A DNA stretch of 64,000 nt from Pseudomonadota bacterium (GCA_039799965.1 JBDLRS010000011.1:1234-65233); one strand, 5' to 3'; counted from the first letter of the stretch, positions 24,625 to 50,731 are shown. Translations and numbers: made by a program. The notes: generated from the sequence alone by a model not told the origin.

Positions 24625-26559
24625 ATGTCGAAGGAAAATAAATTCCAAAAATTGATTCAAGAGGATCGTGAGACCCGTAAAAAATCTTCTTGGAAAGGTA
24701 CGATGCTTGAGTACCTTGAGAAAGTTCGCGAGAACCCTGGGGCGGTCAAACTTGCGCACAAGCGGCTCTACGACATGATCGCTGATAAGGGAACCGTCGA
24801 GGTGGACCTCGAACAGGATCCCCGCCTGAAGCGTATCTTCAAGGGCGAGAAGCTCAAAGTCTTTAACTTCTTCGCCGACGAGTTCTTCGGTATGGAGAAA
24901 ACGCTCAATCAGATCGTGCGATATTTCCACTCAGCGTCGCTGCGAGGAGAGGAGAGTCGGCAGGTTCTCTACCTCGTAGGTCCCGTAGGTTCCGGAAAGA
25001 GCTCTCTTGTGGAGCGCCTCAAGAAGGGACTTGAGGAGCTTCAGTTTTTCTACTCCATTGAGGGATGTCCGATGAATGAGGAGCCGCTGCACCTCGTTCC
25101 TCGACACCTTCGCAAGGAGTTCTCCAAGATGCTCGGCGTGGAGATCGAGGGAGATCTCTGTCCGGTTTGTCGATACCGCCTCAAAGAGGAGTTCAAGGGT
25201 AAGTGGGAGGACGTTCCCGTCAAGACCCAGGAGTTCTCCATTCGCGCCAAGCGTGGCGTGGGCGTTGTTCCCCCGGTAGATCCGAACAACCAAGATACCA
25301 GCGTTCTGATCGGTGGGGAGGATATCTCAAAACTCGACCTCTACTCAGAGGGCGATCCGCGAGTGCTTGACCTTACTGGCGCGCTGAATGTGGGTAACCG
25401 CGGAATGGTTGAGTTCATCGAGGTGTTCAAGAACGAGACCGAGTATCTTCACGCGATGATCACCGCGACTCAGGAGAAGTCGATTCCAGCTCCCGGGCGT
25501 CACGGAATGATTTACGTCGATACCTGCATCGTGGCGCATTCCAACGAAGCGGAGTGGAAGAAGTTCAAGAGCGACCACACCAACGAGGCGATCCTTGACC
25601 GTATCGTGACGGTAAAGGTCCCCTACAATTTGCGACTCTCTGAGGAGGTGAAGATCTACAAGAAGATCATTCGTCAATCGCAGTTCACGGCCGATATCGC
25701 TCCGCACACGATCGAGATCGCCTCGATGTTCGCGATCCTCTCCCGACTTGAGCCAACCAATAAGTGCGACCTGGTAACCAAACTCAAGCTCTATAACGGA
25801 GAAGAGGTTGTGGAGAAGGGCAAGACGAAGCGCATCGATGTGGTAGAGCTTCGTGAAGAGGCGAAGAGCGAGGGAATGAACGGTATTTCTACTCGTTTCA
25901 TCATGAAGGCGCTCGATAATGCGCTCTCTGATAACGTCGAGATGAACGCTATCAATCCTATCTCGGTACGAGAGGCGCTCGTGCAGATGGTTAAGGAGGC
26001 GGACTTCGCGGATGACGTGAAGAAGCGCTACCTTGAGTTCCTCCAGGATACCCTCCACAAGGAGTTTCTTGAGGTGCTTGAGAAAGAGATCACCAAGGCG
26101 TTCGTCTACTCCTACCAGGAGCAGGCGGAGTCACTCTTCCAAAACTACCTTGATCACGCTGAGTCATACGTGACGAAGAAGAAGTTCAAGGATCGTAGCA
26201 CCGGTGAGGTGCTCGAGCCGGACGAGGGATTCATGAAGTCTATTGAGGAACAGATCGCTATCATCGGCACCGCGTGTGATGGATTCCGTCAGGAGGTCAT
26301 CGCGTACCTCTGGTCAGCGGGACGCCGCGGCGAGAAGGTCACATACGAGAGCTACGAGCCGCTTAAAGAGGCGATCGAGAAGAAGCTGATGGCGAGCGTT
26401 CGCGATGTATCGCGAATTATTACCAAGGCGCGCACTCGAGATGACGACCAGCACAAAAAGTACAACAAGATGGTTGAGCAGCTTATTCGGAACGGATATC
26501 CGGCGAGTTGCGTGGATGTAATCCTGAAGTACGCCGCCAACAATCTTTGGAAGGACTAA
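24625..26559 (+). CDS. prkA: PrkA family serine protein kinase (AAA+ ATPase N-domain)
   Basis: 644 aa. Walker A motif LVGPVGSGKSSLVERLK. It is colinear with the yeaH-like and spoVR genes. Confidence 0.9.
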   Translation: MSKENKFQKLIQEDRETRKKSSWKGTMLEYLEKVRENPGAVKLAHKRLYDMIADKGTVEVDLEQDPRLKRIFKGEKLKVFNFFADEFFGMEKTLNQIVRYFHSASLRGEESRQVLYLVGPVGSGKSSLVERLKKGLEELQFFYSIEGCPMNEEPLHLVPRHLRKEFSKMLGVEIEGDLCPVCRYRLKEEFKGKWEDVPVKTQEFSIRAKRGVGVVPPVDPNNQDTSVLIGGEDISKLDLYSEGDPRVLDLTGALNVGNRGMVEFIEVFKNETEYLHAMITATQEKSIPAPGRHGMIYVDTCIVAHSNEAEWKKFKSDHTNEAILDRIVTVKVPYNLRLSEEVKIYKKIIRQSQFTADIAPHTIEIASMFAILSRLEPTNKCDLVTKLKLYNGEEVVEKGKTKRIDVVELREEAKSEGMNGISTRFIMKALDNALSDNVEMNAINPISVREALVQMVKEADFADDVKKRYLEFLQDTLHKEFLEVLEKEITKAFVYSYQEQAESLFQNYLDHAESYVTKKKFKDRSTGEVLEPDEGFMKSIEEQIAIIGTACDGFRQEVIAYLWSAGRRGEKVTYESYEPLKEAIEKKLMASVRDVSRIITKARTRDDDQHKKYNKMVEQLIRNGYPASCVDVILKYAANNLWKD

Positions 26560-26584
26560 ACGTTCCCCGCTTCGGTGAGGTGTA

Positions 26585-27820
26585 ATGTCGACCATATTTC
26601 GTCCCTACACTCCTAGCTCGCAGCGCTCTGACCGGAGCGCGCGAGATAGGATGCGACATCGCCAAAAGATCAAAGACTCTATTCGCGATAACATCGGTGA
26701 TATCCTTGCAGAGGAATCTATCATCGGTCGGGATCGGGATAAGATCATCAAGGTGCCAATCCGCTCCGTCAAGGAGTATCGCTTCATCTACGGCGAAAAC
26801 TCGCCGGGCGTGGCTCAGGGCGACGGCCAGCAGAAGCCAGGAGATGTAGTTCAACAGGGCGATCAAGAGGGTAAGGGACAGGGCGGTAAGGGTGGAGACC
26901 AACCTGGTGTCGATGCTTTTGAGACCGACATCACCCTAGAGGAGCTCATCGCGATTATGTTTGATGACCTCGAGCTTCCGGAGCTTGAGAAGAAGGCCCT
27001 GAAGGAGGTCGTGTCAGAGGATGCCCGCAAACGCAAAGGTCATCGCCGAGCCGGTATTCGGCCCCGACTCGATAAGCGAGCAACCGCGCGTAATCGAGCC
27101 CGAAGGTGGATGTCGGTACGTCGAAGTCGAGAGGTTGGTCCAGATGGCGAGAAGCCGCGCTTCCCATTCCACGAGGATGATATGCGGTACTACCACATCG
27201 TCCCTACAACGAAAGAGGCTTCGAACGCCGTGATCTTCTGTATCATGGATACCTCAGGATCTATGGGTACGGTGAAGAAGTACCTCGCGCGGAGCTTTTA
27301 CTTCCTATTGTATCAATTCGTTCGCCAAAAATACGCTAACGTTGAGGTGGTCTTTATCGCTCACCATACCGAAGCGAAGGAGGTGAGTGAGGAGGATTTC
27401 TTCCACAAGGTGGAATCGGGAGGTACCTACATCTCCTCAGGCTATAAGAAGGCGCTCGAGATTATCGAGGACCGGTATCATCCATCGCTATGGAACGTGT
27501 ACGCGTTTCATTGTTCCGATGGTGATAACTTCTACTCAGATAATGAGCGCGCCCTGCAGGCGGCTGAGGATCTGTGTAAGGTGTGCAATCTCTTTGGCTA
27601 TGGTGAGATTAAGCCATCGGGGAGCGCCTACTACAGCGGTACTATGTTAGAGGTGTTCGGCGCAATTAAAGCCGACAACTTCCACATGATTACGATCGAG
27701 AAGAAAGAGGATCTCTGGGAAGGCTTCAGAAGCTTCCTACTGAAGGATAAGGGGAGCGGCGTTTCGGCTCACGGAAAAGTGTTTGGTGGGAGCGAGGGGG
27801 CGGCTTCGGCCGCACCGTAG
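26585..27820 (+). CDS. YeaH/YhbH family protein (DUF444, vWA-like)
   Basis: 411 aa. Carries the DUF444 hallmark FCIMDTSGSMG. It follows prkA by 25 nt. Confidence 0.85.
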   Translation: MSTIFRPYTPSSQRSDRSARDRMRHRQKIKDSIRDNIGDILAEESIIGRDRDKIIKVPIRSVKEYRFIYGENSPGVAQGDGQQKPGDVVQQGDQEGKGQGGKGGDQPGVDAFETDITLEELIAIMFDDLELPELEKKALKEVVSEDARKRKGHRRAGIRPRLDKRATARNRARRWMSVRRSREVGPDGEKPRFPFHEDDMRYYHIVPTTKEASNAVIFCIMDTSGSMGTVKKYLARSFYFLLYQFVRQKYANVEVVFIAHHTEAKEVSEEDFFHKVESGGTYISSGYKKALEIIEDRYHPSLWNVYAFHCSDGDNFYSDNERALQAAEDLCKVCNLFGYGEIKPSGSAYYSGTMLEVFGAIKADNFHMITIEKKEDLWEGFRSFLLKDKGSGVSAHGKVFGGSEGAASAAP

Positions 27821-27826
27821 AAAGCT

Positions 27827-29284
27827 ATGTCACATAACATCGACGAACTTGCTGATTGGGATAAACGGATACTGGAGCTCGTTCACACGTACGGGCTCAA
27901 CTGCTATCCCCAAGAGTTTGAGATCTGCGATCACAACGAGATGTTGGGATATATGGCGTACACCGGCATGCCATCGCACTATCCACACTGGTCATACGGT
28001 AAATCGTTCGAACGTCAAAAGACCATGTATGACTACGGTGTGTCGGGTCTTCCGTACGAGATGGTGATCAATTCAAATCCCTGTCTTGCGTACTTAATGC
28101 GTGATAATTCACTCCTGTTACAGGTGCTCACTATAGCCCACGTATACGGCCATAACGACTTTTTCGCAAACAACTTCACCTTTACCTCGGGAACCAAAGC
28201 GGAGCACGTTCTTCAGTCCTTTAAGAGCCACGGACAGAGAATTAGCTCGTACCAAGAGGATCCCTCGATCGGTGTCGAGGCTGTCGAGAACATGATCGAT
28301 CACGCGCACGCGATCTGTTACCAACGGTCTCGAAATCTCGCTATTACACAACTCTCTCAGGATGAGCAGGTTCTTCGGGCGTGGGAGCGATCGCAGCCAG
28401 CGGCGGACCCGTGGCGAGAAATTCATCCGGCGAAGGAGTATAAGCCACCTAATCTTACACGGGTTCCAGCGGAGCCGCAGGAGAATATCCTGCAGTTTAT
28501 CGCCAAGTATAATCCGTACCTCCCTGAGTGGAAGAGGGACATCCTGTTGATCGTTGACGCGCAGACGCAGTACTTCATGCCGCAGATGGACACCAAGATC
28601 ATGAACGAGGGATGGGCGAGCTACTGGCATCATAAGATCCTTAACGAGCTTAAGCTCCCGCAAGGGATGCACCTTGAGTTCCTCGTACGGCACAACCAGG
28701 TGTTGCGCCCCCACCCAGGTGGGCTCAATCCATATCACCTCGGATTCGTTCTGTGGCACGATATCGAGCGTCGCTGGAATCAGGGAGACATTGGTAGAGA
28801 GTGGTCGGACGATGAGCCGCCAACCGCTGAAGGGATCAAAGACGAGAACGAAACCCCGGGTCGTAAAAAGATCTTTGAGGTACGCGAAGCGGACCGTGAC
28901 CAGTCCTTCCTTCGCCGATTTCTTACACGCGAGATAATGGAGGAGCTGCACCTCTTCCAGCACGAGCGCCGGGGAAAAGATCGCGTTATCACCAAGGTCG
29001 CCAGCGAAGAGGGGTGGCGCGAGGTCAAAGAGAACCTTATCAGGAACGTTGGTACCGGCTCTATTCCGGTTATAAAGATCGAGGATGCGGATTTTGGGAA
29101 GAGCCGCATACTCTATATGAAGCACTACCATGACGGTCGAGATCTTCAGCTTGAGTACGCGGAGCACACGCTTAAGCACGTGGCGGCTCTGTGGGAGCGT
29201 GAGGTAGTGCTCGAGACCTCGATTAACGGCAAGGAGTCGCTTCTTAAGTTGGTTGGCGATTCCCTCAAAATTGAGCGACTCTAG
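27827..29284 (+). CDS. spoVR: SpoVR family protein
   Basis: 485 aa third member of the prkA-yeaH-spoVR triad. Its TAG stop lies inside the CTAG end of the MITE. Confidence 0.85.
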   Translation: MSHNIDELADWDKRILELVHTYGLNCYPQEFEICDHNEMLGYMAYTGMPSHYPHWSYGKSFERQKTMYDYGVSGLPYEMVINSNPCLAYLMRDNSLLLQVLTIAHVYGHNDFFANNFTFTSGTKAEHVLQSFKSHGQRISSYQEDPSIGVEAVENMIDHAHAICYQRSRNLAITQLSQDEQVLRAWERSQPAADPWREIHPAKEYKPPNLTRVPAEPQENILQFIAKYNPYLPEWKRDILLIVDAQTQYFMPQMDTKIMNEGWASYWHHKILNELKLPQGMHLEFLVRHNQVLRPHPGGLNPYHLGFVLWHDIERRWNQGDIGREWSDDEPPTAEGIKDENETPGRKKIFEVREADRDQSFLRRFLTREIMEELHLFQHERRGKDRVITKVASEEGWREVKENLIRNVGTGSIPVIKIEDADFGKSRILYMKHYHDGRDLQLEYAEHTLKHVAALWEREVVLETSINGKESLLKLVGDSLKIERL

Positions 29285-29469
29285 CAGGGTGGTGAAAAAT
29301 GGTTCCGTCGTGAGCATTTTGAAAGTTTTGACGAAACAAGGCGGAGATGACGAAAAAACCGGAGGCGTATCCACCGAGATACGTTGAGGATTTTTTCGGC
29401 AGCTCCAACGAAGTTGCAGTCACACTATCGAAATGCGCAACAGGAAATCATTTTTCACCACCCTGCTAG
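29281..29469. mobile_element. 181-bp MITE-like element, copy 1 (core 29285..29465) with CTAG on both flanks
   Basis: Perfect TIR CAGGGTGGTGAAAAATG / CATTTTTCACCACCCTG. Nested internal stems (ACGTATC-CACTGA-GATACGT; CGAAAAAA/TTTTTTCG). Sits between convergent spoVR and pntB. Confidence 0.8.
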
Positions 29470-36774: not shown

Positions 36775-37185
36775 TCATCCCTCCACCCTCAACAAGATCT
36801 CTCGATTCCTCACTCCATCCGCCCCTGATTCCGCCCCTGATTCCGCCCCTGATTCCTCCACGACGATACCCTTATTGGAGATCTCGACAACGCGCGCTCC
36901 TCTGTCTCCAATAATCGTCCCTCGCTCGACCTTGTATCCGACCCCTTCAGGGTTCTCGACGCTCGCAAAACGCTCGCCTTGGGCGTTCGTGATAATGGCG
37001 GTGAGGGTGAGCGCATTCAGAGGGTATCGCTGAAGGGGAGGTATGGCGGTCAGTGGTCGAGGGGTAGGTGTCGTATCTATCGGTTGAAAGAGGTTGCGTC
37101 GGGTTAGGGGCGACTCTCCATGGGCGTACGGGCACCCGATGCACAGCAGGAAAGCAAAGGTTACAGTGGGGGCGAATCTGTTCAT
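36775..37185 (-). CDS. small secreted (lipo)protein with C-terminal (ESGA)3 repeat
   Basis: ATG at 37185 gives MNRFAPTVTFAFLLCIGCPYAHG. The track ORF extends upstream only through repeat-derived sequence. The C-terminal ESGAESGAESGA comes from CCGCCCCTGATT x3 at 36819..36855. Confidence 0.35.
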   Translation of the reverse strand: MNRFAPTVTFAFLLCIGCPYAHGESPLTRRNLFQPIDTTPTPRPLTAIPPLQRYPLNALTLTAIITNAQGERFASVENPEGVGYKVERGTIIGDRGARVVEISNKGIVVEESGAESGAESGADGVRNREILLRVEG

Positions 37186-37275
37186 GCGCGCTCTCCAGAA
37201 GAGATGAATCGAGAATGGTGCGGCTGAGGAGGGGGTATCGAGAGTGCGGTTAAAAAGGTGCGTCTCTGCGCCTCG

Positions 37276-37362
37276 GAGCGGATTTCCGATGAAGAAGAAA
37301 TGGAGCGGATTTTCGATGAAGAAGAAATGGAGCGGATTTTCCGATGAAGAGATGGAGCGGAG
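37276..37362. repeat. tandem direct repeat, about 3.3 x 27 bp (GAGCGGATTTTCGATGAAGAAGAAATG)
   Basis: Read directly. It lies immediately next to the tRNA-Pro 3' end. Confidence 0.6.
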
Positions 37363-37405
37363 CGTTGTGAGATTGAGGGTTGTTACCTGAAAATGGACGA
37401 AAAAA

Positions 37406-37480
37406 TCGGGGTGAGAGGATTTGAACCTCCGACCCCTAGTTCCCAAAACTAGTGCTCTAGCCGGGCTGAGCTACACCCCG
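37406..37480 (-). tRNA. tRNA-Pro (anticodon TGG)
   Basis: Minus-strand read: CGGGGTG-TA-GCTCAGCCCGGCTAGAGC-A-CTAGT-TTTGGGA-ACTAG-GGGTC-GGAGG-TTCAAAT-CCTCT-CACCCCG-A. It has a 7-bp acceptor stem, anticodon loop UUUGGGA with G37, and GTTCAAAT T-loop. CCA is not encoded. Confidence 0.85.
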
Positions 37481-37603
37481 ATACGTCCGTAACGTGCTGG
37501 GGAGACTAGCCTCTCTGGCGGATAGAATCAAGCGGGAAGGGAGCCTTTTCGTCGTTGGGGCGGACAAACTCGGCGGTGGACTGAGATTCGGTGTGAGCGC
37601 GGG

Positions 37604-37636
37604 TACGTTCACGTTTACGTGCACGAGCACGTTCAT
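37604..37636. repeat. ACGTKC-type hexamer repeat block (GGGTACGTTCACGTTTACGTGCACGAGCACGTTCA)
   Basis: Near-identical (2 mismatches) to 59538..59574. Related tracts occur at 15071..15097 and, inverted, at 59447..59486. Confidence 0.5.
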
Positions 37637-37727
37637 GGGGGCAGAGGTGCGTGATTCGTTGGAGGATTTTGGGGTGGGTGGCATAGCCTGGGTAAAGTCT
37701 GATATACCAAAACATCTTGGAGGAGTT

Positions 37728-39125
37728 ATGCCCAACTACGTTTCGATTCACGATATTTCCAACGATAAGGTGCCTGTGGGTACGCTCCAGCTCGCTGGCT
37801 GGATCCGAACTCATCGGCAGTCGAAGCGAGTGTCCTTCATCGAGTTGTCGGACGGAACCTCGGTCACGAATCTCCAACTTGTGGTCGACCCGCAGTTGCC
37901 GGCCTATGCGGAGAACGCTTCAAAGCTCTCAACGGGCGCTTCCATTAAGGTTTCAGGAGAGTTGGTCGTGTCTCCGGCAAAGGGGCAGAAGTATGAGTTC
38001 CAGGTTAAGGAGCTTGAGCTCCTGGGAGAGGCTGACCCTGAGATCTACCCACTTCAAAAGAAAGGGCACTCCCTTGAGTTTCTCCGTGAGCAACTTCACC
38101 TTCGACCTCGAACCGCTACGATGGGCGCGGTGCTGCGCATTCGTTCCGCGGCGGCGTTCGCCGTTCATAAGTTCTTTACTGAACGTGGATTCTTCTACAT
38201 CCACACCCCTATTATCAGCACCTCTGATTGTGAGGGAGCTGGCGAGATGTTTCACGTCTCGACGTTCGATCCGGAGAACCCTCCGCGTTTGAACGGCAAG
38301 GTGGACTTTTCTCAGGACTTCTTCAAGGAACCGGCGAGTCTCACCGTTTCAGGGCAACTTGAGGGAGAGATCTGCGCGATGGGTCTCTCAAAGATCTACA
38401 CCTTCGGTCCAACATTCAGGGCCGAGAATTCGAACACGACACGACATCTCGCCGAATTCTGGATGATCGAGCCAGAGATGGCTTTCTACGAGTTGCAAGA
38501 CAATATGCTTCTTGCGCAGGAGTTCGTTCAGGATGTTTTGAAGCAGGTGCTCGCCTCCTCCCGTTCTGAGCTTGAGTTCCTCGCCTCACAGGAGTGGGCG
38601 CAGGAGGGACACCTCGATAACCTTCGTCGCGTTGCGGAGACCCCGTTTACGACGATGGATTACACCGACGCCATTCGCATCCTTGAACAGAGTGGCAAGG
38701 CTTTCGAGTATCACGTGAAGTGGGGGATCGATCTTCAATCTGAGCATGAGCGATTCCTGACGGATGAGTACGTGAAAGGTCCAGTTACCGTTGTGAACTA
38801 CCCGAAGGACATTAAAGCGTTCTATATGCGCCTCAATGAGGACGGTAAGACGGTACGAGCGATGGATGTGCTCGTTCCTCGGTTGGGGGAGATCGTAGGT
38901 GGGTCGCAACGTGAGGAACGCCACGATGTTCTCCTTGAGAAGATCCGCGCCATGGGGCTCGATGAGCGTTCCTACTGGTGGTATCTTGAGCTTCGCAAGT
39001 TCGGTACCGTGCCTCATTCCGGTTTCGGGCTCGGCTTTGAGCGGTTGCTTATGTACCTCACGGGGATGACAAATATCCGAGATGTTATCGGATTCCCTCG
39101 ATTCCCAGGGTTCGCCAAGTTCTAG
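37728..39125 (+). CDS. asnS: asparagine--tRNA ligase
   Basis: Class IIb aaRS with OB-fold N-domain. Motif 3 region GFGLGFERLLMYLTGMTNIRDVIGFPRFPG. ATG (MPNYVSIHDI) is preferred over the track GTG at 37494. Its TAG stop lies in the MITE CTAG. Confidence 0.8.
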   Translation: MPNYVSIHDISNDKVPVGTLQLAGWIRTHRQSKRVSFIELSDGTSVTNLQLVVDPQLPAYAENASKLSTGASIKVSGELVVSPAKGQKYEFQVKELELLGEADPEIYPLQKKGHSLEFLREQLHLRPRTATMGAVLRIRSAAAFAVHKFFTERGFFYIHTPIISTSDCEGAGEMFHVSTFDPENPPRLNGKVDFSQDFFKEPASLTVSGQLEGEICAMGLSKIYTFGPTFRAENSNTTRHLAEFWMIEPEMAFYELQDNMLLAQEFVQDVLKQVLASSRSELEFLASQEWAQEGHLDNLRRVAETPFTTMDYTDAIRILEQSGKAFEYHVKWGIDLQSEHERFLTDEYVKGPVTVVNYPKDIKAFYMRLNEDGKTVRAMDVLVPRLGEIVGGSQREERHDVLLEKIRAMGLDERSYWWYLELRKFGTVPHSGFGLGFERLLMYLTGMTNIRDVIGFPRFPGFAKF

Positions 39126-39310
39126 CAGGGTGGTGAAAAATGGTTCCGTCGTGAGCATTTTGCGAGTTTTGACGAAACGAGGCGGAGACGACGAAAAAAC
39201 CGGAGGCGTATCCAATGAGATACGTTGAGGATCTTTTCGGCGGCTCCAACGAAGTTGCAGTCAAACTATCGAAATGCGCAACAGGAAATCATTTTTCACC
39301 ACCCTGCTAG
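39122..39310. mobile_element. 181-bp MITE-like element, copy 2 (core 39126..39306), CTAG flanks
   Basis: Same perfect TIRs as copy 1, with a few internal substitutions (for example TTGCGAG vs TTGAAAG). Sits between asnS and the ornithine aminotransferase gene. Confidence 0.8.
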
Positions 39311-40781: not shown

Positions 40782-41921
40782 CTACAAAATCCCCCGCAAC
40801 GCGCGATCATCTCGACACAACTTCCCGAACTCGTTCGCCAGGAAATCGGTGAGTGAGATATCTTCCGCGCGAATGAACCCGGACCTCTTGCCGATCGCCC
40901 CTGAGAGGAGGAGATCGATAGGGGCGCAAATTCCCGCGGCTGTCGTAATCTGAATGGCACTATAATGCTTGCCGGCCACGGTCTGGTTATACACACAACT
41001 CGCGTAGGTTTTCTGTGTCCTCACACCCTTCAGGATTCCCGATGCCTCAACAAAGATGATGCATTTATCCTGTCCCGTTGTGGGGATGCTCCTCTCGAAT
41101 ACCTGCTTCAGTCCGGCGCGATCGTTAATGAACTTAAGGTCGTGCAGAAGAAATGAAACGAGGTCTCTATGGCCGGGATACCGAATCGTTTTGTAGTTAA
41201 GGTCGCTCACCTTGCCGTGTAGAGCGTCCGCAAGGGTGCCGAGGCCTCCTGAGGTGTTAAACGCCTCGTACTCATCTCCGTCGAAGGAAAACTGCTCAAG
41301 ACCTTCGAGCGCGGGGACGGTAAGCTTAACCCCACTCTGAATTACTTCGCAGGGATTGCAGTACTCGTTGATTAACCCGTCGGTGGACCAGGTGAGATTG
41401 TACATCAACCGGTTAGTCGGATATATCGGAAGCGCTCCCACGCGAAGCTTGAGGGAGTCTACCGAATCTAACAATCCGACGAGGTGCGCGGCCGCGATAC
41501 TAATGAATCCAGGAGCGAGACCGCACTGCGGCATAAAGCACGAACGAGAATTCTGCGAGAGGTGCGCGATAAATTTTGAGGTCTCTACGTCCTCGGTAAG
41601 GTCAGCGTAGTGGATTCCCACGTCGTGAGCCGCTTGCGCCACGGCTCGGTTGCAAAAGAAGGGAAGGGCACTGACAACGATCTCGCAGTCCGCAAGGAGC
41701 TTGCGAAGAGCGCCCGAGTCGTTGAGGTTCACCAGGTGAGCCTCGCAACAACTCTTATCCAGAGCGGCAACCTCGGCCCGTTTCAGGTCGACGTCACATA
41801 CCTTGATCTTGTACCGTCCGGAGGCAGCGAACAGGGCAGTGATGGTCTCTCCAATTTTTCCTGCTCCGATCAGTGCAACAGTTCTCATAGCATTACCTCT
41901 GGTGGTGGCAGATATCTCCAA
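40782..41921 (-). CDS. saccharopine dehydrogenase family NAD(P)-dependent oxidoreductase
   Basis: Rossmann N-terminus MRTVALIGAGKIGETITALFAASG. The overall pattern is Sacchrp_dh_NADP/C. ATG at 41888 is more likely than the start at 41921. Confidence 0.6.
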   Translation of the reverse strand: MEISATTRGNAMRTVALIGAGKIGETITALFAASGRYKIKVCDVDLKRAEVAALDKSCCEAHLVNLNDSGALRKLLADCEIVVSALPFFCNRAVAQAAHDVGIHYADLTEDVETSKFIAHLSQNSRSCFMPQCGLAPGFISIAAAHLVGLLDSVDSLKLRVGALPIYPTNRLMYNLTWSTDGLINEYCNPCEVIQSGVKLTVPALEGLEQFSFDGDEYEAFNTSGGLGTLADALHGKVSDLNYKTIRYPGHRDLVSFLLHDLKFINDRAGLKQVFERSIPTTGQDKCIIFVEASGILKGVRTQKTYASCVYNQTVAGKHYSAIQITTAAGICAPIDLLLSGAIGKRSGFIRAEDISLTDFLANEFGKLCRDDRALRGIL

Positions 41922-41922
41922 G

Positions 41923-44202
41923 CTACGATCGGCTCATCGCGCGAGGTGACATGATCTCTGAGAGCGCGAGCTGCTCCTGCGCCACAGACAGAGGCAGCGC
42001 GTATTTTGAACGGGAGTGCTCGACGCATGCCTTCGCCGAATTCTCAGTGGTGGCAGCGTTCTGAACGTCGAGGGTATATCCCGAGAATGCCTCTAGCACC
42101 TCTCCGTCGATACTCATCTTCACATAAAACTCCCGAAGGGCAAGGTTGAGGAGATCTTCGGATCCGAATCGTGGTTTAAATTCCTGGGCTACGGTGGCGG
42201 CGTCATCAGCCCCTACTCGGAAGCACACCAGGTTCGCCACATTTCCAAAGATGGTCTCCTTGACGGTTTGCGGTAGTTGACCGAGGAACTGATTGGCGAA
42301 GGTGAGGCAGAGGCGGTACTTGCGCGACTCGCTGAGAATCTCTCCGAATGACGGAGTAGCGAAATTCTGGAACTCATCGACGTACACGTAAAAGTCCTGA
42401 CGAGACTCTACCGGAATATCAGCTCGTGACATCGCTGCTTCGTAGAGCTTCCAGATGATGAGGGACCCAAGCAGCGAGGCGTTCTCGGCACCAAGTACAC
42501 CCTTCGATATCTTGAAGATTACGATCTTGCGGGAGTCGATGAAGTCACGGAAGTCAAAGGTGTTTGTCGGCTGTCCGAGAATGTTTCGAATCATGTCCGT
42601 AGCGAGCAACTCATCTAAGCGATTGAGAAGTTGCGACACAGGCCCCTCCTCAAACTCTTGGCGCCGAGATGGAAACTCAACCTCCCAGAATCTTCGCACC
42701 GATTCATCGGTGCTTCGGGATACGACCTCTCTGCGGAACTCGTCGTCTGAGAGAAGTCGACGGAGCGAGACGATACTAGCGCCCGGGATGTTCAGGAGCG
42801 CGTTGATGGCGTAGCGCAGGATATGGTCCATCTTTTCCGACCACCCATCGCCGAAAACCCGCTTAAAGGTATCGAGGAAGCTGAGCATGACTCGAACTTT
42901 GAGGTCCGGTCTGATAGGAATCATCGGGTTGAAGCTCGGCGGGTGCTCCAGATCGCTCGGATCGAAGATGACGACATCCTTGAGTCGGTGTTTAGGGATC
43001 GTCTTTAATATCTCGTCAGAGAGGTCCCCGTGAGGATCGAGCACCGCGCAGCCGAAGCCGTTATCGATATCAGCCTTGATGAGAAGTTGAAGGAAACACG
43101 ACTTCCCGTTTCCGGATTTTCCGAGAGCGTAGAGATGGCGGCGTCGATCGAATCGGCGAAAGCCAAACGGGGTCGTCTGATCGCGATAGTTAGTGACGCC
43201 AAAAAAACTTATCTGAGGATCGTTTGGAGTGGATGGCAGGGTTCGCGGTGGCGGCGCTTTGCGGGAGAGCACGAGAGCTGTATTGGGAAGCGTCCCGGCG
43301 GACGGAGGGTGCCACAGGGTTGAGAGTTCAATCGCCGATACCATGAAGGGGCTATTGAATCTTCGTTGCTGCATGAGCTTAATCACGGAGGGCCCATACC
43401 GAAGCGGTCGGGTTCGAAGCCGATTCTCATCCGCCGTATTGAGATACTTCACCGCGTGGGTGGCCGCTCGTACATGGAGGGCGAGGCGGGATTGGAGTGA
43501 AGCTGCGTCTTTCTTTGATGCGTTCTTAGGAAGGTCGGCGAACGCCGTAACGCGATAGTTGATCTTGAAGAGGCGAGAGAGGCACTTCTCTTTGACAAGT
43601 TTTATGCTCTGGTTGGCGATATCCTTCTTAAGCCACGTTCGCGTCCTGAAGAGGCGGCAGAACTGCTCGATCTTTCGGAGCGCGCCTAACTTCGCATGAA
43701 GTAACGGGGTGTCGCGAAGTGGTCGAACAACAACCTGGACCAGGACGTTCTCGAACTCGGAGATTCGCGACAGGGTAGTAACGACAGGAGCCATACTATC
43801 CCACGCGAACGCCCGGAAGTTCTGAAGCGGATAAATGTCCGGCCACTCCAGGTCGAGATCCGCGCCAACCGCGACGGTTTGGTCATTTATCTCTGTGGTG
43901 TAGTCGTCAATGTACTCAATTTCAACGTCAGCCCACCAACCGTATATCGCTTTGGTAATAAGTTGCAGCGTTTCCTCTTCAGCGGCGATACAGATGTAGA
44001 CGATCGTTCCCTTTGCGTACAACTCAAGGGAGAAAGGTTCGGTCGTTTGCTCAGCGATATCGTTGAGCTGAGTAAAAAAGAAGTTGGACGTAACCAATGC
44101 CCACTTGGTCATCCTCATAGCATCGCCAATCGTCATCATGGCTCTCGGGACGTGGATCAGGGCTACGCGCATGGTGGGAGGTATCTCAAGGGATATAAAC
44201 AA
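41923..44202 (-). CDS. soluble P-loop NTPase of the TrwB/TraD/VirD4 coupling-protein-like (AAA_10/DUF87) family
   Basis: 759 aa with no TM segment. Walker A LYALGKSGNGKSCFL is followed by VLDPHGDL. Walker B DFYVYVDEFQNF. Distal LTFANQFLGQL. The unknown N-terminal ~330-aa domain is not conserved with any family I can name. Confidence 0.5.
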   Translation of the reverse strand: MFISLEIPPTMRVALIHVPRAMMTIGDAMRMTKWALVTSNFFFTQLNDIAEQTTEPFSLELYAKGTIVYICIAAEEETLQLITKAIYGWWADVEIEYIDDYTTEINDQTVAVGADLDLEWPDIYPLQNFRAFAWDSMAPVVTTLSRISEFENVLVQVVVRPLRDTPLLHAKLGALRKIEQFCRLFRTRTWLKKDIANQSIKLVKEKCLSRLFKINYRVTAFADLPKNASKKDAASLQSRLALHVRAATHAVKYLNTADENRLRTRPLRYGPSVIKLMQQRRFNSPFMVSAIELSTLWHPPSAGTLPNTALVLSRKAPPPRTLPSTPNDPQISFFGVTNYRDQTTPFGFRRFDRRRHLYALGKSGNGKSCFLQLLIKADIDNGFGCAVLDPHGDLSDEILKTIPKHRLKDVVIFDPSDLEHPPSFNPMIPIRPDLKVRVMLSFLDTFKRVFGDGWSEKMDHILRYAINALLNIPGASIVSLRRLLSDDEFRREVVSRSTDESVRRFWEVEFPSRRQEFEEGPVSQLLNRLDELLATDMIRNILGQPTNTFDFRDFIDSRKIVIFKISKGVLGAENASLLGSLIIWKLYEAAMSRADIPVESRQDFYVYVDEFQNFATPSFGEILSESRKYRLCLTFANQFLGQLPQTVKETIFGNVANLVCFRVGADDAATVAQEFKPRFGSEDLLNLALREFYVKMSIDGEVLEAFSGYTLDVQNAATTENSAKACVEHSRSKYALPLSVAQEQLALSEIMSPRAMSRS

Positions 44203-44262: not shown

Positions 44263-44451
44263 TGAGCAGGGTGGTGAAAAATGGTTCCGTCGTGAGCATT
44301 TTGAGAGTTTTGACGAAACGAGGCGGAGACGACGAAAAAACCGGAGGCGTATCCACTGAGATACGTTGAGGATTTTTTCGGCGGCTCCAACAAAGTTGCA
44401 GTCAAACTATCGAAATGCGCAACAGGAAATCATTTTTCACCACCCTGTTAG
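44263..44451. mobile_element. 181-bp MITE-like element, copy 3 (core 44267..44447), flanks TGAG/TTAG
   Basis: Same TIRs (right end CACCACCCTG). Lies in the divergent upstream region of the T4CP-like ATPase and the coiled-coil gene. Confidence 0.75.
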
Positions 44452-46099: not shown

Positions 46100-48742
46100 C
46101 TACACAGCGTCCCGCTCCGGGTGTGGCGCCAGAACCTCGCGAGGCTTAACACCATCCATCTTTCCAACAACCCCCTCCCGCTCCATCATCTCAATAATTC
46201 GAGCGGCCCGGTTATAACCGATGCGAAAGGTTCGTTGGATCATCGAAGTTGATGCCTGTCCCTTTTCTAGAACAAGTTCAACGGCTTTGTCATAAAAAGG
46301 ATCGAACTCCTCGCCCTCTCCTCCCTCGCCGTTACCATCTTGACCGCCAGAGCTACTCTCCTCAGCGAGAGCCTTCTCACAGGCAGCGATAATCGCCTCG
46401 TCGTACTGAGGCTGACACTGAGACTTTAGCGAGGTCACAACCTTCTGAACTTCGTGGTCCGACACAAACGCTCCGTGCACACGCTTCAATGGCACTGCGC
46501 CTGGTAACATAAAGAGCATATCTCCCTTGCCGAGAAGCTTCTCCGCTCCCATCGAATCAAGGATCGTTCGAGAGTCGATACGGCTCGTTACCCGGAATGA
46601 GAGACGAGCCGGAAAGTTCGCCTTAATGAGGCCGGTGATAACATCTACCGAGGGACGCTGGGTAGCAACAATAAGGTGAATACCAGCGGCTCGGGCCTTT
46701 TGCGCAAGCCTCGTTATGAGCTCCTCGATCTCCCGTCCCACCGTCAACATCAGGTCCGCGAGCTCGTCGATGACAATTATCAATTTGGGCATCGGGCGAA
46801 GCTGCTCCGGAGCTGTCGGTTCAACGGTGGGATGCCTCTCGCCCTCCCCTAAAGCGCTACCCTCCTTCGCCTCGACAGGTTGCTGCGCGAAGAGCTCCGT
46901 TTGAGCCATCGAGGGGTGGTCCCCGGACACGATCTGGTTATATCCATCGATATTGCGAACGCCGAACTTCTGCATATATCGGTAGCGGCGCTCCATCTCC
47001 TTGACGGCCCATCCCAGGACGGCCTTCGCCTGACGAGCGTCGGTTACCACCGGCACCCGTAGATGCGGAATGCCATCGTAGATACTGAGCTCAAGCACCT
47101 TCGGATCGATCAGGATCAATCCCAGCTCTGCCGGATGCGCTCGATAGAGCAGACTCAAGAGGATCGCGTTAATAGAAACCGACTTACCAGTACCGGTAGC
47201 TCCCGCCATGAGAAGATGCGGCATCGACGCGACATCAACAACCACCGCCTCGCCGTAGGTGTCCTTCCCAAGGGGCACACTCAGGATAGATTCGCTCTGT
47301 CTCAACAATTCACTCTCCAGACAGTCGCGAAGCCGCACAACCGCGCGATGCTTATTCGGAACCTCTATGCCCACCGTTCCCCGCTTAGGAATTGGAGCAA
47401 TGATACGGATGCTGCTGGCACGGAGACTCATGGCGAGGTCATCCTGCAAAGCGGCGATCCTTCCCACCTTGACACCCGCCGCCGGCTCAAATTCGAAGAG
47501 GGTAATAACGGGACCTGGATGCACCTGAGTTACTCGACCGGCGATATTGAAATCACGCAACTTGGACTCGATCTGCTCCGCTTTCTCACGAAGCTCTTCA
47601 TCGTCATCTCCCAGCTCCTGCTCCTCCTCTTGCGTGAGTAGCTTAAGGTCTGGGGCAACATAATCATCGAAGGCTGGCGGCGGTGTCTCTCCCTCTCGCT
47701 CAACAACCTTCCTCTTTTTTTCAGGAGCAACACGCAGCGGTTTAGGGTGCGGCGAAGGCTCAGCAGCCTTAGGTTTCACGATAATAGGATCGGCTCGTTC
47801 ATGCACGGGTTCACTTGGCGCGCTCTTCTCGACCACCAACGGCCGCCCATCATCCTCCCCTTCAGCGACCACCTCGGCACCATCATTACCGAGCGTCCAG
47901 CCCTCATCCTCTGCGACCTCCTCCTCGTCCTCAACAACCTCATCGGAGGGAGTTTGATTCTTTCGGAGCTTAGGCTTTGGAGTTGGAGCGTCCCCCTCGT
48001 CCTCCCCCTCGTAAGGACCGGACGCAAAGAACAACTTACCGACCACGGGCACCATCAGCTTAAGGAGCGCCGCAAGCAGCCCGACGACAATCAAACCTCC
48101 CCTTGCGATTATGATCGGAAACTCCACGCACAGCAGGGTCAGCCCCGCGCGAACGAGCCACCGAACCCCCGAAGCGATATCGCCAAGGGATCGTTGTAAA
48201 ACAACCGCACAACAGATTGCGCACATAAGCGCCGTGGCAACGAACGTTCCACCGACACCAAGGTGACCTTGACCGAAGGTGGCGATCGTCGCCCCTATCG
48301 AGCCTGCCCACGAAGGGGTAAGAACCGCCGCGACCAAAGCTGATACACAGAAAACGAGGGCGATTCCGGCGCCGACAACCACGGCGGGAGAATAGAGACG
48401 TGGTCGATCATCCTCCGACTTCATCGTTCGGAAGAACGCGAGCCACATCAAGCCGGCAACCGGTAACAGCGCAACGGCCCCCAAACTCCCCACCAGCAAG
48501 GTCGCTATAATGTGCCCCGCAGGCCCCATGATGTTGCGAGATGGAGTGGGTTGCTGCCCCTGATATACGTAGGAGAGGATGCTTGATAGAAGAAAAAGCC
48601 CACTTGCCAGAAGCAGGAGGGAGACAAAGTCACGAACCCAGCCGCGCGGCCTCAGAGGAGCCTTCGCTGCGGCGGCTCCCACCTTGGCTGACTTTTGAGT
48701 TTTGGCACGGCCCGTGGTCCGTCGCTTCTGTGGTGCTGTCAT
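46100..48742 (-). CDS. ftsK: DNA translocase FtsK
   Basis: N-terminal polytopic domain, acidic linker, motor domain with Walker A GATGTGKS and Walker B IIVIDELAD, and C-terminal gamma (wHTH) domain. ATG at 48742 preferred. Confidence 0.9.
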   Translation of the reverse strand: MTAPQKRRTTGRAKTQKSAKVGAAAAKAPLRPRGWVRDFVSLLLLASGLFLLSSILSYVYQGQQPTPSRNIMGPAGHIIATLLVGSLGAVALLPVAGLMWLAFFRTMKSEDDRPRLYSPAVVVGAGIALVFCVSALVAAVLTPSWAGSIGATIATFGQGHLGVGGTFVATALMCAICCAVVLQRSLGDIASGVRWLVRAGLTLLCVEFPIIIARGGLIVVGLLAALLKLMVPVVGKLFFASGPYEGEDEGDAPTPKPKLRKNQTPSDEVVEDEEEVAEDEGWTLGNDGAEVVAEGEDDGRPLVVEKSAPSEPVHERADPIIVKPKAAEPSPHPKPLRVAPEKKRKVVEREGETPPPAFDDYVAPDLKLLTQEEEQELGDDDEELREKAEQIESKLRDFNIAGRVTQVHPGPVITLFEFEPAAGVKVGRIAALQDDLAMSLRASSIRIIAPIPKRGTVGIEVPNKHRAVVRLRDCLESELLRQSESILSVPLGKDTYGEAVVVDVASMPHLLMAGATGTGKSVSINAILLSLLYRAHPAELGLILIDPKVLELSIYDGIPHLRVPVVTDARQAKAVLGWAVKEMERRYRYMQKFGVRNIDGYNQIVSGDHPSMAQTELFAQQPVEAKEGSALGEGERHPTVEPTAPEQLRPMPKLIIVIDELADLMLTVGREIEELITRLAQKARAAGIHLIVATQRPSVDVITGLIKANFPARLSFRVTSRIDSRTILDSMGAEKLLGKGDMLFMLPGAVPLKRVHGAFVSDHEVQKVVTSLKSQCQPQYDEAIIAACEKALAEESSSGGQDGNGEGGEGEEFDPFYDKAVELVLEKGQASTSMIQRTFRIGYNRAARIIEMMEREGVVGKMDGVKPREVLAPHPERDAV

Positions 48743-48862
48743 GGTAACTGCTCTAGCATGAGGAATAAGCAAACACGGCTTAATCGTACCACTAAGATGC
48801 AGCTCTACCCAGAGGGAATCTGCGACAAACAGAACATCTTTTTAGGCATGCTGGTGCGGTTA

Positions 48863-49519: not shown

Positions 49520-49893
49520 AACCACACCGCTCCTTATCAGCCCTAATCCCCGCACAATATCCACCCAACGCCGAAGCGTCCAGTTACGAGGACGATACCC
49601 CACATTACCGAGCTTCGACACCTCAAAACACGCGCGGAAAGTCAAGCAATCAAACTCAAAAATCATCGAATCGTTTGCGCAGGGGAAACAATCATAAGGC
49701 GCAGAGATTGCGTGTGAATCGAGTGGTATATGCGCATCCTCATACCCACCCGACGGTGCGTAGAGGCGATATACTTCACCCGAGGTTCCCTCTTGATCTC
49801 ACAAGGGAAACTGCTTTACCCTTCCCCACAAATACGAAACAGAACACGGGCTTGCTCTCGCAAAACGCAGCTCTTTACTTGGAAAGATGTACT

Positions 49894-50364
49894 ATGACCA
49901 CCAAAGCTACAGAAAAAATCATCGAAGCTCTCACGCAACTCGTAGAGGGATTCGCGGAGCTTCAAGAGAAGCTTGAGGAGGACTACGATCCCGATATGGA
50001 GACCGAGTCTGACGATGACGATACTGATAGCGACGATGAAGAGGGCGCGACAGGTATAGAGGAGGCCATCGTTACCGAGATCAAGGCGGCCGTTGAGTCG
50101 GTCATCGAAAACGAGGACTGCGCCCCTGAGGATCTCGCATCCATAGTGTCAGCCCTTACTGGCGCCCTCGAGGAGATCGCTCCAGAGGTATTCAGCCACG
50201 GCGAGGCTGAGGAGGAAGAGGAAGAAGAGGAGGAGGAGTACGAAGAGGTCGACGACGAAGACTTCGAGGAGGACTACGACGAGGACGAAGACGAGGACGA
50301 AGACGAAGACGAGGACGAGGACGAGGACGAAGACGAGGATGAGGACGAAGACGATGATGACTAG
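49894..50364 (+). CDS. highly acidic protein with C-terminal poly-Asp/Glu tail
   Basis: ATG at 49894 (MTTKATEKIIEAL...). The last ~60 residues are almost pure D/E (EEEEEEEEEEYEEVDDEDFEEDYDEDEDEDEDED...DDDD), encoded by a GAGGACGAAGAC-type microsatellite. Confidence 0.5.
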   Translation: MTTKATEKIIEALTQLVEGFAELQEKLEEDYDPDMETESDDDDTDSDDEEGATGIEEAIVTEIKAAVESVIENEDCAPEDLASIVSALTGALEEIAPEVFSHGEAEEEEEEEEEEYEEVDDEDFEEDYDEDEDEDEDEDEDEDEDEDEDEDEDDDD

Positions 50365-50542: not shown

Positions 50543-50731
50543 ATAGCAGGGCGGTGAAAAATGGTTCCGTCGTGAGCATTTTGAGAGTTTTGACGAAACG
50601 AGGCGGAGACGACGAAAAAACCGGAGGCGTATCCACTGAGATACGTTGAGGTTTTTTTCGGGGGCTCCAACGAAGTTGCAGTCAAACTATCGAAATGCGC
50701 AACAGGAAATCATTCTTCACCACCGTGATAG
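50543..50731. mobile_element. 181-bp MITE-like element, copy 4 (core 50547..50727; degenerate TIRs), ATAG flanks
   Basis: Left end CAGGGCGGTG and right end CACCACCGTG each carry one substitution. Sits between the convergent acidic-protein gene and the M16 peptidase gene. Directly preceded by two tandem TTTACCTAACGGGCTA units. Confidence 0.7.

Follow-up and report, generated by a model that had tools for sequence, protein, structure and literature searches.

Coupling proteins (T4CPs) of type IV secretion systems (T4SSs), such as VirD4, TrwB, TraG/TraD and DotL, share a P-loop motor of the FtsK-HerA superfamily, which combines Walker A and Walker B motifs with an all-alpha insertion and a TraG-D_C-type C-terminal part; canonical T4CPs also carry an N-terminal hydrophobic anchor. 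The VirB4 ATPases (TrwK in R388) have a two-domain layout, and their N-terminal domain, which docks on membrane partners, contacts VirB3 and VirB8 in the R388 structures. Within the Patescibacteria, 5,713 VirD4-type homologues occur in 2,918 of 3,035 genomes (96%), only 148 of them near virB4, and 109 relaxases occur in all, according to the portions of Quinonero-Coronel et al. 2025 (PMC12102498) drawn upon here. Those portions leave open the role of these proteins, which are almost never found beside a T4SS; they report that in Southlakia the VirD4-type homologue is dispensable and the T4SS essential, and they state that exaptation 'cannot be ruled out'. The Southlakia T4SS itself is described, in the part of Wang et al. 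2023 (PMC10633639) drawn upon here, as having no recognisable coupling protein or relaxase. Here an ATPase of this general kind is described from outside the Patescibacteria. It is encoded on the minus strand, at 41923..44172, of a 64,000-nucleotide stretch of DNA from a Pseudomonadota bacterium (GCA_039799965.1, JBDLRS010000011.1:1234-65233; the whole stretch is termed here the window), and what is new about it is that a coupling-protein-like ATPase with a DUF8128 N-terminal domain of predicted VirB4-like fold occurs without a membrane anchor in a host that is not a patescibacterium. The favored reading, which is held with somewhat better than even confidence, is that the protein is a soluble, orphan, T4SS-independent, coupling-protein-like nucleic-acid motor, in which a DUF8128 domain and a linker precede a VirD4/TrwB-type motor domain.

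The gene encodes 749 residues from an ATG at 44172 and ends in a TAG codon at 41925-41923. The open reading frame (ORF) given in a preliminary description of this DNA (41923-44202, minus strand) is 759 residues long from a TTG, 10 codons beyond this ATG; because the homologues and an identical 749-residue protein at NCBI (P0001, 'hypothetical protein RIS36_249', from a metagenome-assembled genome) begin at MRVALIHVPR, ATG 44172 is the probable start. Translation showed that ORF to be real and placed the four motifs that the same description had quoted, all on the minus strand: Walker A GKSGNGKS (43099..43122; residues 351-358), VLDPHGDL (43021..43044), Walker B YVYVDEF (42370..42390; D599 and E600) and TFANQFLGQL (42274..42303; residues 624-633, after an RKY motif). 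Across 61 homologues all four are invariant or nearly so: there is no variation at G351, K352, S353, G354, G356, K357 and S358 of Walker A, at R617-K618-Y619, or at T624, Q628 and Q632, and D599 and E600 are invariant both in this comparison and in one of 13 sequences. The ratio of nonsynonymous to synonymous substitution (dN/dS) against a 90%-identical relative is 0.041 for the ATPase (0.061 for the N-terminal domain, 0.025 for the motor), as compared with 0.025 for the adjacent saccharopine-dehydrogenase-like (SDH-like) gene and 0.029 for a nearby aminotransferase gene, all at a dS of about 1.4, which is near saturation. Judged from these ratios, both domains of the ATPase are functional, under strong purifying selection and constrained like housekeeping genes.

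The motor domain (41968..43212, minus strand; residues 321-735) is assigned to the VirD4/TrwB type by Pfam, hhalign and Foldseek. Over the C-terminal 430 residues, the protein scores above the Pfam cut-offs for PF02534 T4SS-DNA_transf (28.4 bits; cut-off 20.1), PF12696 TraG-D_C (27.5 bits; cut-off 22) and PF01935 DUF87 (27.6 bits; cut-off 23.2), and relatives of the ATPase score 27-29 bits with PF10412 TrwB_AAD_bind (cut-off 20.5); the Pfam models CagE_TrbE_VirB and P-loop_TraG do not match the window protein. When the profile of the 61-member family is aligned by hhalign with TrwB of R388 (the R388 sequence used being NC_028464), the match has a probability of 90.9% and an E-value of 1.1e-6 over 254 columns, and it covers TrwB residues 122-393, that is, from the P-loop via the all-alpha region to past Walker B. 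With the same profile the probability is 4% for TrwK/VirB4 on its own and 50% for a VirB4 profile built from 36 sequences; hence by sequence the motor is of the VirD4/TrwB type, though a distant member, and the earlier designation as a TrwB/VirD4-like P-loop ATPase holds. Scores with the NCBIfam T4CP equivalogs lie far below the cut-offs (conju_CD1115, 48 bits against 250; SXT_TraD, 25 against 366; TOL TraD, 15 against 648).

A full-length AlphaFold2 (AF2) model, built from the 61-sequence alignment, has a predicted local distance difference test score (pLDDT) of 87.4 and a predicted template-modeling score (pTM) of 0.78. Between strands 400-403 and 550-554 the model has helices only, at residues 422-546, so that the segment at 42535..42909 (minus strand; residues ~422-546) is the predicted counterpart of the T4CP all-alpha domain. 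In a Foldseek search of the PDB with the whole model, the best matches are to TrwK/VirB4 (E 9e-15), followed by HerA (4d2i, 9x1m), TrwB, DotL, Cag-beta and the C-domain of DndH, with a template-modeling score (TM) normalized to the target (TMt) of about 0.6 for TrwB and DotL and of 0.71 for the DndH C-domain. No membrane helix is predicted in the ATPase, since the Kyte-Doolittle hydropathy, averaged over 19 residues, peaks at 1.19; the protein thus lacks predicted transmembrane segments, as had been proposed from the sequence. The ATPase is, in short, real, strongly conserved and devoid of a membrane anchor, with a motor of the conjugation coupling-protein type; its identity and family assignment are held with high confidence.

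Ahead of the motor lies an alpha/beta domain of the DUF8128 type (43303..44172, minus strand; residues 1 to ~290), which is identified from PF26449, AF2 and Foldseek. The Pfam domains precomputed for P0001, the identical protein, are PF26449 DUF8128 (marked weak), PF01935, PF02534 and PF12696; PF26449 appears without the weak mark on a relative (P0026) and is also listed for many other relatives. By these assignments the window protein has the architecture DUF8128 + DUF87 + T4SS-DNA_transf + TraG-D_C. The N-terminal region had been put forward as a novel domain of 330 residues, but it is already cataloged as Pfam DUF8128 (PF26449) and is colinear in hundreds of Patescibacteria; no Pfam model other than PF26449 matches it even at E<=10, and no indexed paper describes the domain under the term DUF8128.

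Modeled alone, residues 1-322 give a pLDDT of 83.8 and a pTM of 0.82. In the PDB this domain model has 13 Foldseek matches at E<=1e-3, every one of them to TrwK/VirB4 (the best with E 1.1e-5, probability 1.0 and a query-normalized TM, TMq, of 0.48; range 0.43-0.48), and the remainder have a TM below 0.3. Among predicted viral structures (BFVD) the best match is gp156 of Bacillus phage G (E 3.6e-15, TMq 0.60); further matches are to proteins of phages JL and Slash and to gp155 of phage G (E 7e-8). The predicted fold thus resembles that of the VirB4/TrwK N-terminal domain, and resembles that of gp156 more strongly. Because an hhalign comparison of the N-domain profile with the VirB4 profile gives no match (probability 0.5%), what is claimed here is a resemblance of fold rather than homology with the N-terminal domain of VirB4. 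Between this domain and the motor runs a proline-rich linker, ELSTLWHPP...LPNT...KAPPP..LP (43219..43329, minus strand; residues 282-318), which has low pLDDT in the domain-only model and the consensus ELxTLxHxP...PN...PP..LP in the 13-sequence alignment; its residues E282, H288, P290, P309, L312 and P313 show no variation from the clade of the window protein to the Saccharibacteria.

In comparison with T4CPs, then, the window protein shares the superfamily motor, the Walker motifs, the all-alpha insertion and the TraG-D_C-type C-terminal part, and many members of its family carry an N-terminal hydrophobic anchor; it differs in having no transmembrane segment, in having a DUF8128 domain of ~290 residues and a proline-rich linker before the motor, in falling far short of the equivalog cut-offs, and in being encoded by a chromosomal, vertically syntenic gene that is linked to neither relaxase nor T4SS genes in the regions scanned. 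For the window, these regions are the ORFs at 21.7-62.6 kb, which were scanned against Pfam, and they contain no T4SS, relaxase, conjugation, nuclease, NurA, Sir2 or VirB3/VirB6/VirB8 genes; likewise no relaxase or mating-pair formation (MPF) genes lie around the ATPase loci of five relatives. The preliminary description had already remarked on the lack of nearby T4SS, conjugation, NurA or Sir2-type partners, and there are indeed none within ~20 kb.

The family to which the protein belongs is large and conserved. A scan of GTDB yielded at least 598 stretches that encode relatives, mostly from Patescibacteria and with the DUF8128 domain colinear, and a profile search matched 8,452 of 1.84 billion cluster representatives (at 50% identity) at E<=1e-30, many of them motor-only. 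Among the GTDB matches listed, the window's own clade comes first, with two species at 54% (L001, titled Bdellovibrionota) and 53% identity; next come Peregrinibacteria, Abawacabacteria, Gracilibacteria, Saccharibacteria and other Patescibacteria at 31-42%, mostly with both domains. In 80 GTDB loci the tblastn alignments cover residues ~1-749 or ~45-735 at 31-54% identity, and over 100 columns, distributed over both domains, are invariant in an alignment of 13 sequences that extends from the window protein to Saccharibacteria. The window protein and its Patescibacteria counterparts are homologous and colinear from end to end, and the architecture stays colinear as far as Bacillus phage G. Near-universal among the ultrasmall Patescibacteria, the family is also found in large Bacillus phages.

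The window protein can also be compared with the orphan 't4cp' proteins of Patescibacteria (PMC12102498): it aligns over its whole length with those of Peregrinibacteria, Gracilibacteria, Abawacabacteria and Saccharibacteria at 31-44% identity and is likewise encoded far from any virB4 in the region scanned, whereas its host, with 55% G+C, is not a patescibacterium, and it has neither the C-terminal basic tail of the Saccharibacteria-type forms of ~830-1,070 residues nor the N-terminal anchor of most of them. The portions of that account drawn upon here make no mention of the DUF8128 domain. NCBI names some Patescibacteria members 'type IV secretory system conjugative DNA transfer family protein'. 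A hydrophobic N-terminal segment (hydropathy of at least 1.6) is present in 45 of 73 homologues, mostly of the Saccharibacteria type, and is absent from the window clade and from the Peregrinibacteria and Abawacabacteria forms of 746-763 residues.

When the motor domains are compared in a neighbor-joining tree with motor-only relatives as the root, the window clade has a bootstrap of 100 and falls inside a clade, also with bootstrap 100, that includes Peregrinibacteria, Gracilibacteria, Abawacabacteria and Daviesbacteria and that leaves the Saccharibacteria-type sequences outside. This nesting, obtained by a simple method and with weak deeper nodes, suggests horizontal exchange with Patescibacteria. 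The G+C content of the window together with its genes for PurL, phosphoenolpyruvate (PEP) carboxylase, PntAB and a sigma-54 regulator clearly identifies the host as something other than a patescibacterium; the gene was probably exchanged between Patescibacteria and the Bdellovibrionota-like lineage of the window. Two further loci with titles from outside the Patescibacteria, both on short contigs, are probable binning errors: one titled Chlamydiae groups in the tree with Saccharibacteria-type sequences, and one titled Bulleidia has a Saccharibacteria-type helix-turn-helix (HTH) gene directly upstream of the ATPase gene.

Gene context varies widely over the family. Within the window's own clade two different synteny blocks surround the ATPase gene, and in other phyla its neighbors include ClpB, FtsH, cytochrome oxidase, TopA-DprA and arrays of Cys-rich paralogues; the contexts compared show no partner gene that is retained throughout the family. 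In 50 GTDB loci, mostly from Saccharibacteria, a gene for a protein of ~350 residues with Sigma70_r4 and HARE-HTH domains (plus a DUF3320 fragment) is located immediately upstream in the same orientation, often preceded by dprA and topA (for example, L024 8539-9642), and at one locus (L060) the Sigma70_r4/HARE-HTH protein and the ATPase form a single ORF of 1,340 residues. Within the Saccharibacteria this protein is a possible partner or regulator of the ATPase. As a separate observation, at four loci from Peregrinibacteria and Abawacabacteria (L003, L005, L006 and L008) the homologue lies within arrays of up to 8 paralogous Cys-rich proteins of ~560 residues, which have no Pfam match save a treble-clef zinc-finger in one (L009).

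A tblastn search of phage genomes identified homologues in 38 records, nearly all from large Bacillus phages. Phage G gp156 aligns with window residues 32-696, and thus with both the N-domain and the motor (E 2e-35), and phrog_5156, which PHROGs annotates as of unknown function, matches residues 247-735 (E 4e-58); as the window is cellular and not phage DNA, these matches show homology and not membership in a phage module. The phrog_5156 proteins (gp156, CP-51 gp91 and 0305phi8-36 gp201) resemble the window protein in that both of its domains match gp156, and are unlike it in that they are 800-910 residues long, have 21-27% identity to it, and in two cases overlap a nicking gene that has no counterpart adjoining the window gene. 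In each of two large, unrelated phages of Bacillus, CP-51 (gp91/gp90; L098 4750-8311) and 0305phi8-36 (gp201/gp200; L100 2370-5613), a gene annotated 'replication initiation by nicking' (the nickase being phrog_9381) shares its first 17-26 nt with the homologue; in phage G a gene so annotated lies ~5 kb away on the other strand, and in SP-10 none is annotated near the homologue. By analogy, the phage ATPase-nickase pair recalls the T4CP-relaxase pair, and it is the best contextual hint at a DNA substrate. A second link to DNA is the position of the Saccharibacteria homologues after dprA, topA and the HTH-protein gene. Phage G gp155 (L097 5234-6883) is annotated 'type IV secretory pathway protein; VirB-like' and matches the PHROG for the large terminase subunit with E 5e-272. 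IMG/VR holds only motor-only relatives (432-456 residues, 41-42% identical to the window motor) that lack both N-domain and anchor; at two loci (L087 7956-9254 and L088 7917-9287) they adjoin genes for a resolvase, a PD-(D/E)XK nuclease and an SNF2-PLD helicase, contexts that look like mobile-element or defence-island settings.

Under the favored reading, the ATPase would assemble into a ring, as do TrwB, HerA, VirB4 and FtsK, and would draw on ATP for the movement or remodeling of nucleic acid, DNA most probably, without involvement of any T4SS. The DUF8128 domain would replace the missing membrane anchor, either docking a partner or selecting the substrate, by analogy with the N-terminal domain of VirB4. 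The anchorless forms of 747-749 residues in the window clade, Peregrinibacteria, Gracilibacteria and Abawacabacteria would derive from anchored forms, and the gene would have passed horizontally between Patescibacteria and the window lineage. A role in DNA processing is plausible; a DNA-motor mechanism as such is put forward more tentatively, at somewhat below even confidence.

Several points weigh against this reading. The VirB4-like fold of the N-domain derives from AlphaFold models that match at a TM of 0.43-0.48 and 7-8% identity, and it has no profile-profile support. Sequence searches against solved T4CPs in the PDB are marginal (E 0.5 by phmmer and 0.003 by profile) and cover only the P-loop. 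The view taken here is that of a 64-kb window, and a T4SS or relaxase may be encoded elsewhere in the genome. The tree is a neighbor-joining tree of a single domain, with an assumed outgroup root and 32-50% support at its deep nodes. The linkages to the phage nickase and to dprA-topA in Saccharibacteria may be lineage-local synteny, as is that to the SDH-like gene of the window (see below), and the Southlakia t4cp homologue may not be a DUF8128 protein.

A first alternative is that the ATPase is a true T4CP that serves a T4SS, together with a relaxase or effectors, encoded elsewhere in the genome, a role commonly assumed for Patescibacteria t4cp homologues remote from virB4. The motor is of the T4CP type by profile, the hydrophobic anchor in 45 of the 73 homologues is like that of canonical T4CPs, NCBI names some members accordingly, and T4CP genes often lie far from virB4 in the portions of PMC12102498 drawn upon here. 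Yet the window protein itself has no membrane helix, no MPF or relaxase gene occurs in the ORFs scanned or in the contexts of the five relatives, the NCBIfam scores are far below their cut-offs (for instance, 48 bits against 250), and the gene shows the strong purifying selection and vertically stable synteny of a housekeeping gene. The figures cited at the outset from partial use of the two published accounts point the same way: few of the Patescibacteria homologues lie near virB4 and relaxases are scarce (PMC12102498), the homologue is dispensable in Southlakia, where the T4SS is essential (with the reservation just made as to its DUF8128 status), and that T4SS has no recognisable coupling protein (PMC10633639). 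A true T4CP is thus considered unlikely.

Somewhat less probable still is a VirB4-like peripheral ATPase that energizes the assembly of, or the extraction of subunits for, an envelope machine such as a pilus or secretion apparatus. Like VirB4/TrwK, the window protein has two domains and a similar length; the best PDB matches of its whole model are to TrwK/VirB4, its N-domain model matches only the N-terminal domain of TrwK/VirB4 in the PDB, and gp155 of phage G, which adjoins gp156, is annotated 'VirB-like'. These resemblances are offset by the low TM (0.3 for the full model, besides the values given above for the N-domain), by the lack of profile similarity between the N-domain and VirB4, by a motor that is nearer TrwB (91% against 50%), by the assignment of gp155 to the large terminase subunits in PHROGs, and by the absence of VirB3, VirB6 and VirB8 neighbors from the region scanned.

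A very improbable alternative is that the protein serves as the ATPase in an as yet uncharacterised system for defence against phages, of the MADS mad8, DndH or HerA kind, in line with the suggestion of the preliminary description that stand-alone HerA/TrwB-like ATPases often mark defence or DNA-processing modules. HerA-NurA, Sir2-HerA and MADS mad8 involve ATPases of the same superfamily (as indicated by DUF87, Foldseek and PADLOC): when PADLOC was run, mad8 matched with E 6e-11 and HerA weakly with 1e-3 to 1e-4, and the Foldseek match to the DndH C-domain and the resolvase, PD-(D/E)XK and SNF2-PLD neighbors of motor-only relatives in predicted viral or mobile contigs could be read in the same sense. 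However, the PADLOC and Foldseek matches span the shared ATPase fold only, no HerA-specific family is matched save DUF87, the relatives in mobile contexts lack the DUF8128 domain, and there is neither a nuclease, Sir2 or methylase partner in the region scanned nor any other defence gene in the window. Defence genes, moreover, are typically patchy in distribution and island-borne, whereas this one is a single gene in conserved synteny, is near-universal across an entire phylum and evolves as housekeeping genes do.

The preliminary description had also drawn attention to the gene downstream, as an unusual pairing of a translocase-type ATPase with an amino-acid-metabolism oxidoreductase. This SDH-like gene (40782..41888, minus strand, outside the ATPase feature; Pfam Sacchrp_dh_NADP and Sacchrp_dh_C) encodes 368 residues from ATG 41888, which is preceded by AGAGG. 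A TTG at 41921 allows a longer ORF, and the abutment of the two genes at 1-2 nt is an artifact of that extension: because the SDH-like protein has 368 residues in all relatives, its start is most likely ATG 41888, which leaves a spacer of 34 nt. In the 90%, 76% and 66% relatives (named here by the identity of their ATPases) the spacer is 263, 259 and 438 nt, respectively, and hence there is no translational coupling. The 34-nt spacer (41889-41922) is found also in an identical contig (L085), and in comparison with the 263 nt of the 90% relative (L081, 10251-10513) it appears to consist of the two ends of a longer one, so that a strain-specific internal deletion of ~230 nt may have occurred; the idea that the longer spacer is a copy of the repeat described below was rejected on sequence comparison. 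Simple promoter and terminator scans at the junction, in the window and in L081, gave results at or below chance expectation.

Neighborhood conservation, which had been proposed as a check, was found in part. The 90%, 76% and 66% relatives keep the ATPase-then-SDH order, but do so within a wholly syntenic block (all three retain the genes for ornithine aminotransferase and asparaginyl-tRNA synthetase, and those at 90% and 66% also retain the PilP-like and YifB genes), so that the adjacency tells nothing beyond shared ancestry. In relatives of 61%, 57% and 54% identity no SDH-like gene lies beside the ATPase gene, which is flanked instead by BatD/NadA on one side and by a convergent gene for thiamine pyrophosphokinase on the other, with flagellar export genes close by, and a tblastn search with the SDH-like protein found nothing in the 80 GTDB loci, which included flanks of up to 10 kb. 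The neighboring aminotransferase is an ornithine--oxo-acid transaminase (TIGR01885, 516 bits), and both genes, this one and the SDH-like one, seem to belong to the ordinary metabolism of amino acids. A functional two-gene module of ATPase and oxidoreductase, despite the common strand, the 34-nt distance in the window and the adjacency in three relatives, is scarcely credible and is refuted as a conserved module, leaving at most strain-specific co-transcription; the pairing is an accident of local gene order, kept only at 66% identity or above, and is not worth pursuing as a module or defence system.

Apart from the ATPase and SDH-like genes, the scanned ORFs have Pfam domains of housekeeping type or none, and they encode PurL, PrkA-DUF444-SpoVR, PntAB, an AMIN-domain protein, YifB, a PilP-like protein, the ornithine aminotransferase, a coiled-coil protein, FtsK, two M16 peptidases, BrkB, an NtrC-type regulator, PEP carboxylase and GDP-mannose genes; no Pfam match was obtained for another three ORFs, and annotated relatives served to identify the asparaginyl-tRNA synthetase. 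A link between the ATPase and the nearby FtsK gene (46100-48772) was rejected, as other genes occupy that position in relatives. Four intergenic copies of an element resembling a miniature inverted-repeat transposable element (MITE), each ~189 nt long, 95-97% identical and with imperfect terminal inverted repeats of ~48 nt, occur at 29281-29469, 39122-39310, 44265-44451 and 50544-50731, and the second and third of them bracket the aminotransferase-SDH-ATPase block, in agreement with the location first given for the gene. The copy at 44265..44451, directly upstream of the ATPase gene, coincides with the point at which the gene order of the 90% and 76% relatives diverges from that of the window (PMI and UDPGP genes in the relatives as against coiled-coil, hypothetical and FtsK genes in the window), and it may mark a rearrangement breakpoint.

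Other features of the window were noted in passing. The PrkA-DUF444-SpoVR triad is intact (24625-29284, plus strand) and is followed by a MITE-like copy and then by the PntB gene on the opposite strand. At 37275-37328 a 27-nt unit forms two tandem repeats (96% identical), translated as a repeated 'ENPLHFFFI', within an upstream extension of the PilP-like ORF (36775-37446, minus strand), whose gene start is probably downstream. The asparaginyl-tRNA synthetase ORF (37494-39125, plus strand) has 543 residues from a GTG, as against 465 in relatives, with alignments beginning at residue 60-76, and its start is probably near MPNYVSIHD. A 229-residue ORF (49675-50364, plus strand) ends in a long Glu/Asp run (EEEEEEEE...DEDEDEDEDEDEDEDDDD) and has no NCBIfam match at E<=1e-5.

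For a family this large and conserved, what the window adds is the stand-alone status of the gene, and no further mechanistic handle. A more far-reaching proposal is improbable: that the family is a T4SS-independent nucleic-acid uptake or processing motor shared laterally among exploiters of other bacteria, namely episymbiotic Patescibacteria, a possibly predatory Bdellovibrionota-like lineage and large Bacillus phages, that its VirB4-like N-domain makes it an evolutionary intermediate between the T4SS ATPases VirB4 and VirD4, and that it forms a core, unrecognised part of the handling of foreign or host DNA or RNA. The anchorless forms, the VirB4-like fold, the occurrence outside Patescibacteria and the nickase-coupled phage homologues are not described in those portions of PMC12102498 and PMC10633639 drawn upon here. 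If the favored reading is correct and these ATPases are true T4SS-independent motors, they would bear on the relationship between VirB4 and VirD4 and on how DNA is acquired and processed by ultrasmall episymbionts and, perhaps, by predators.

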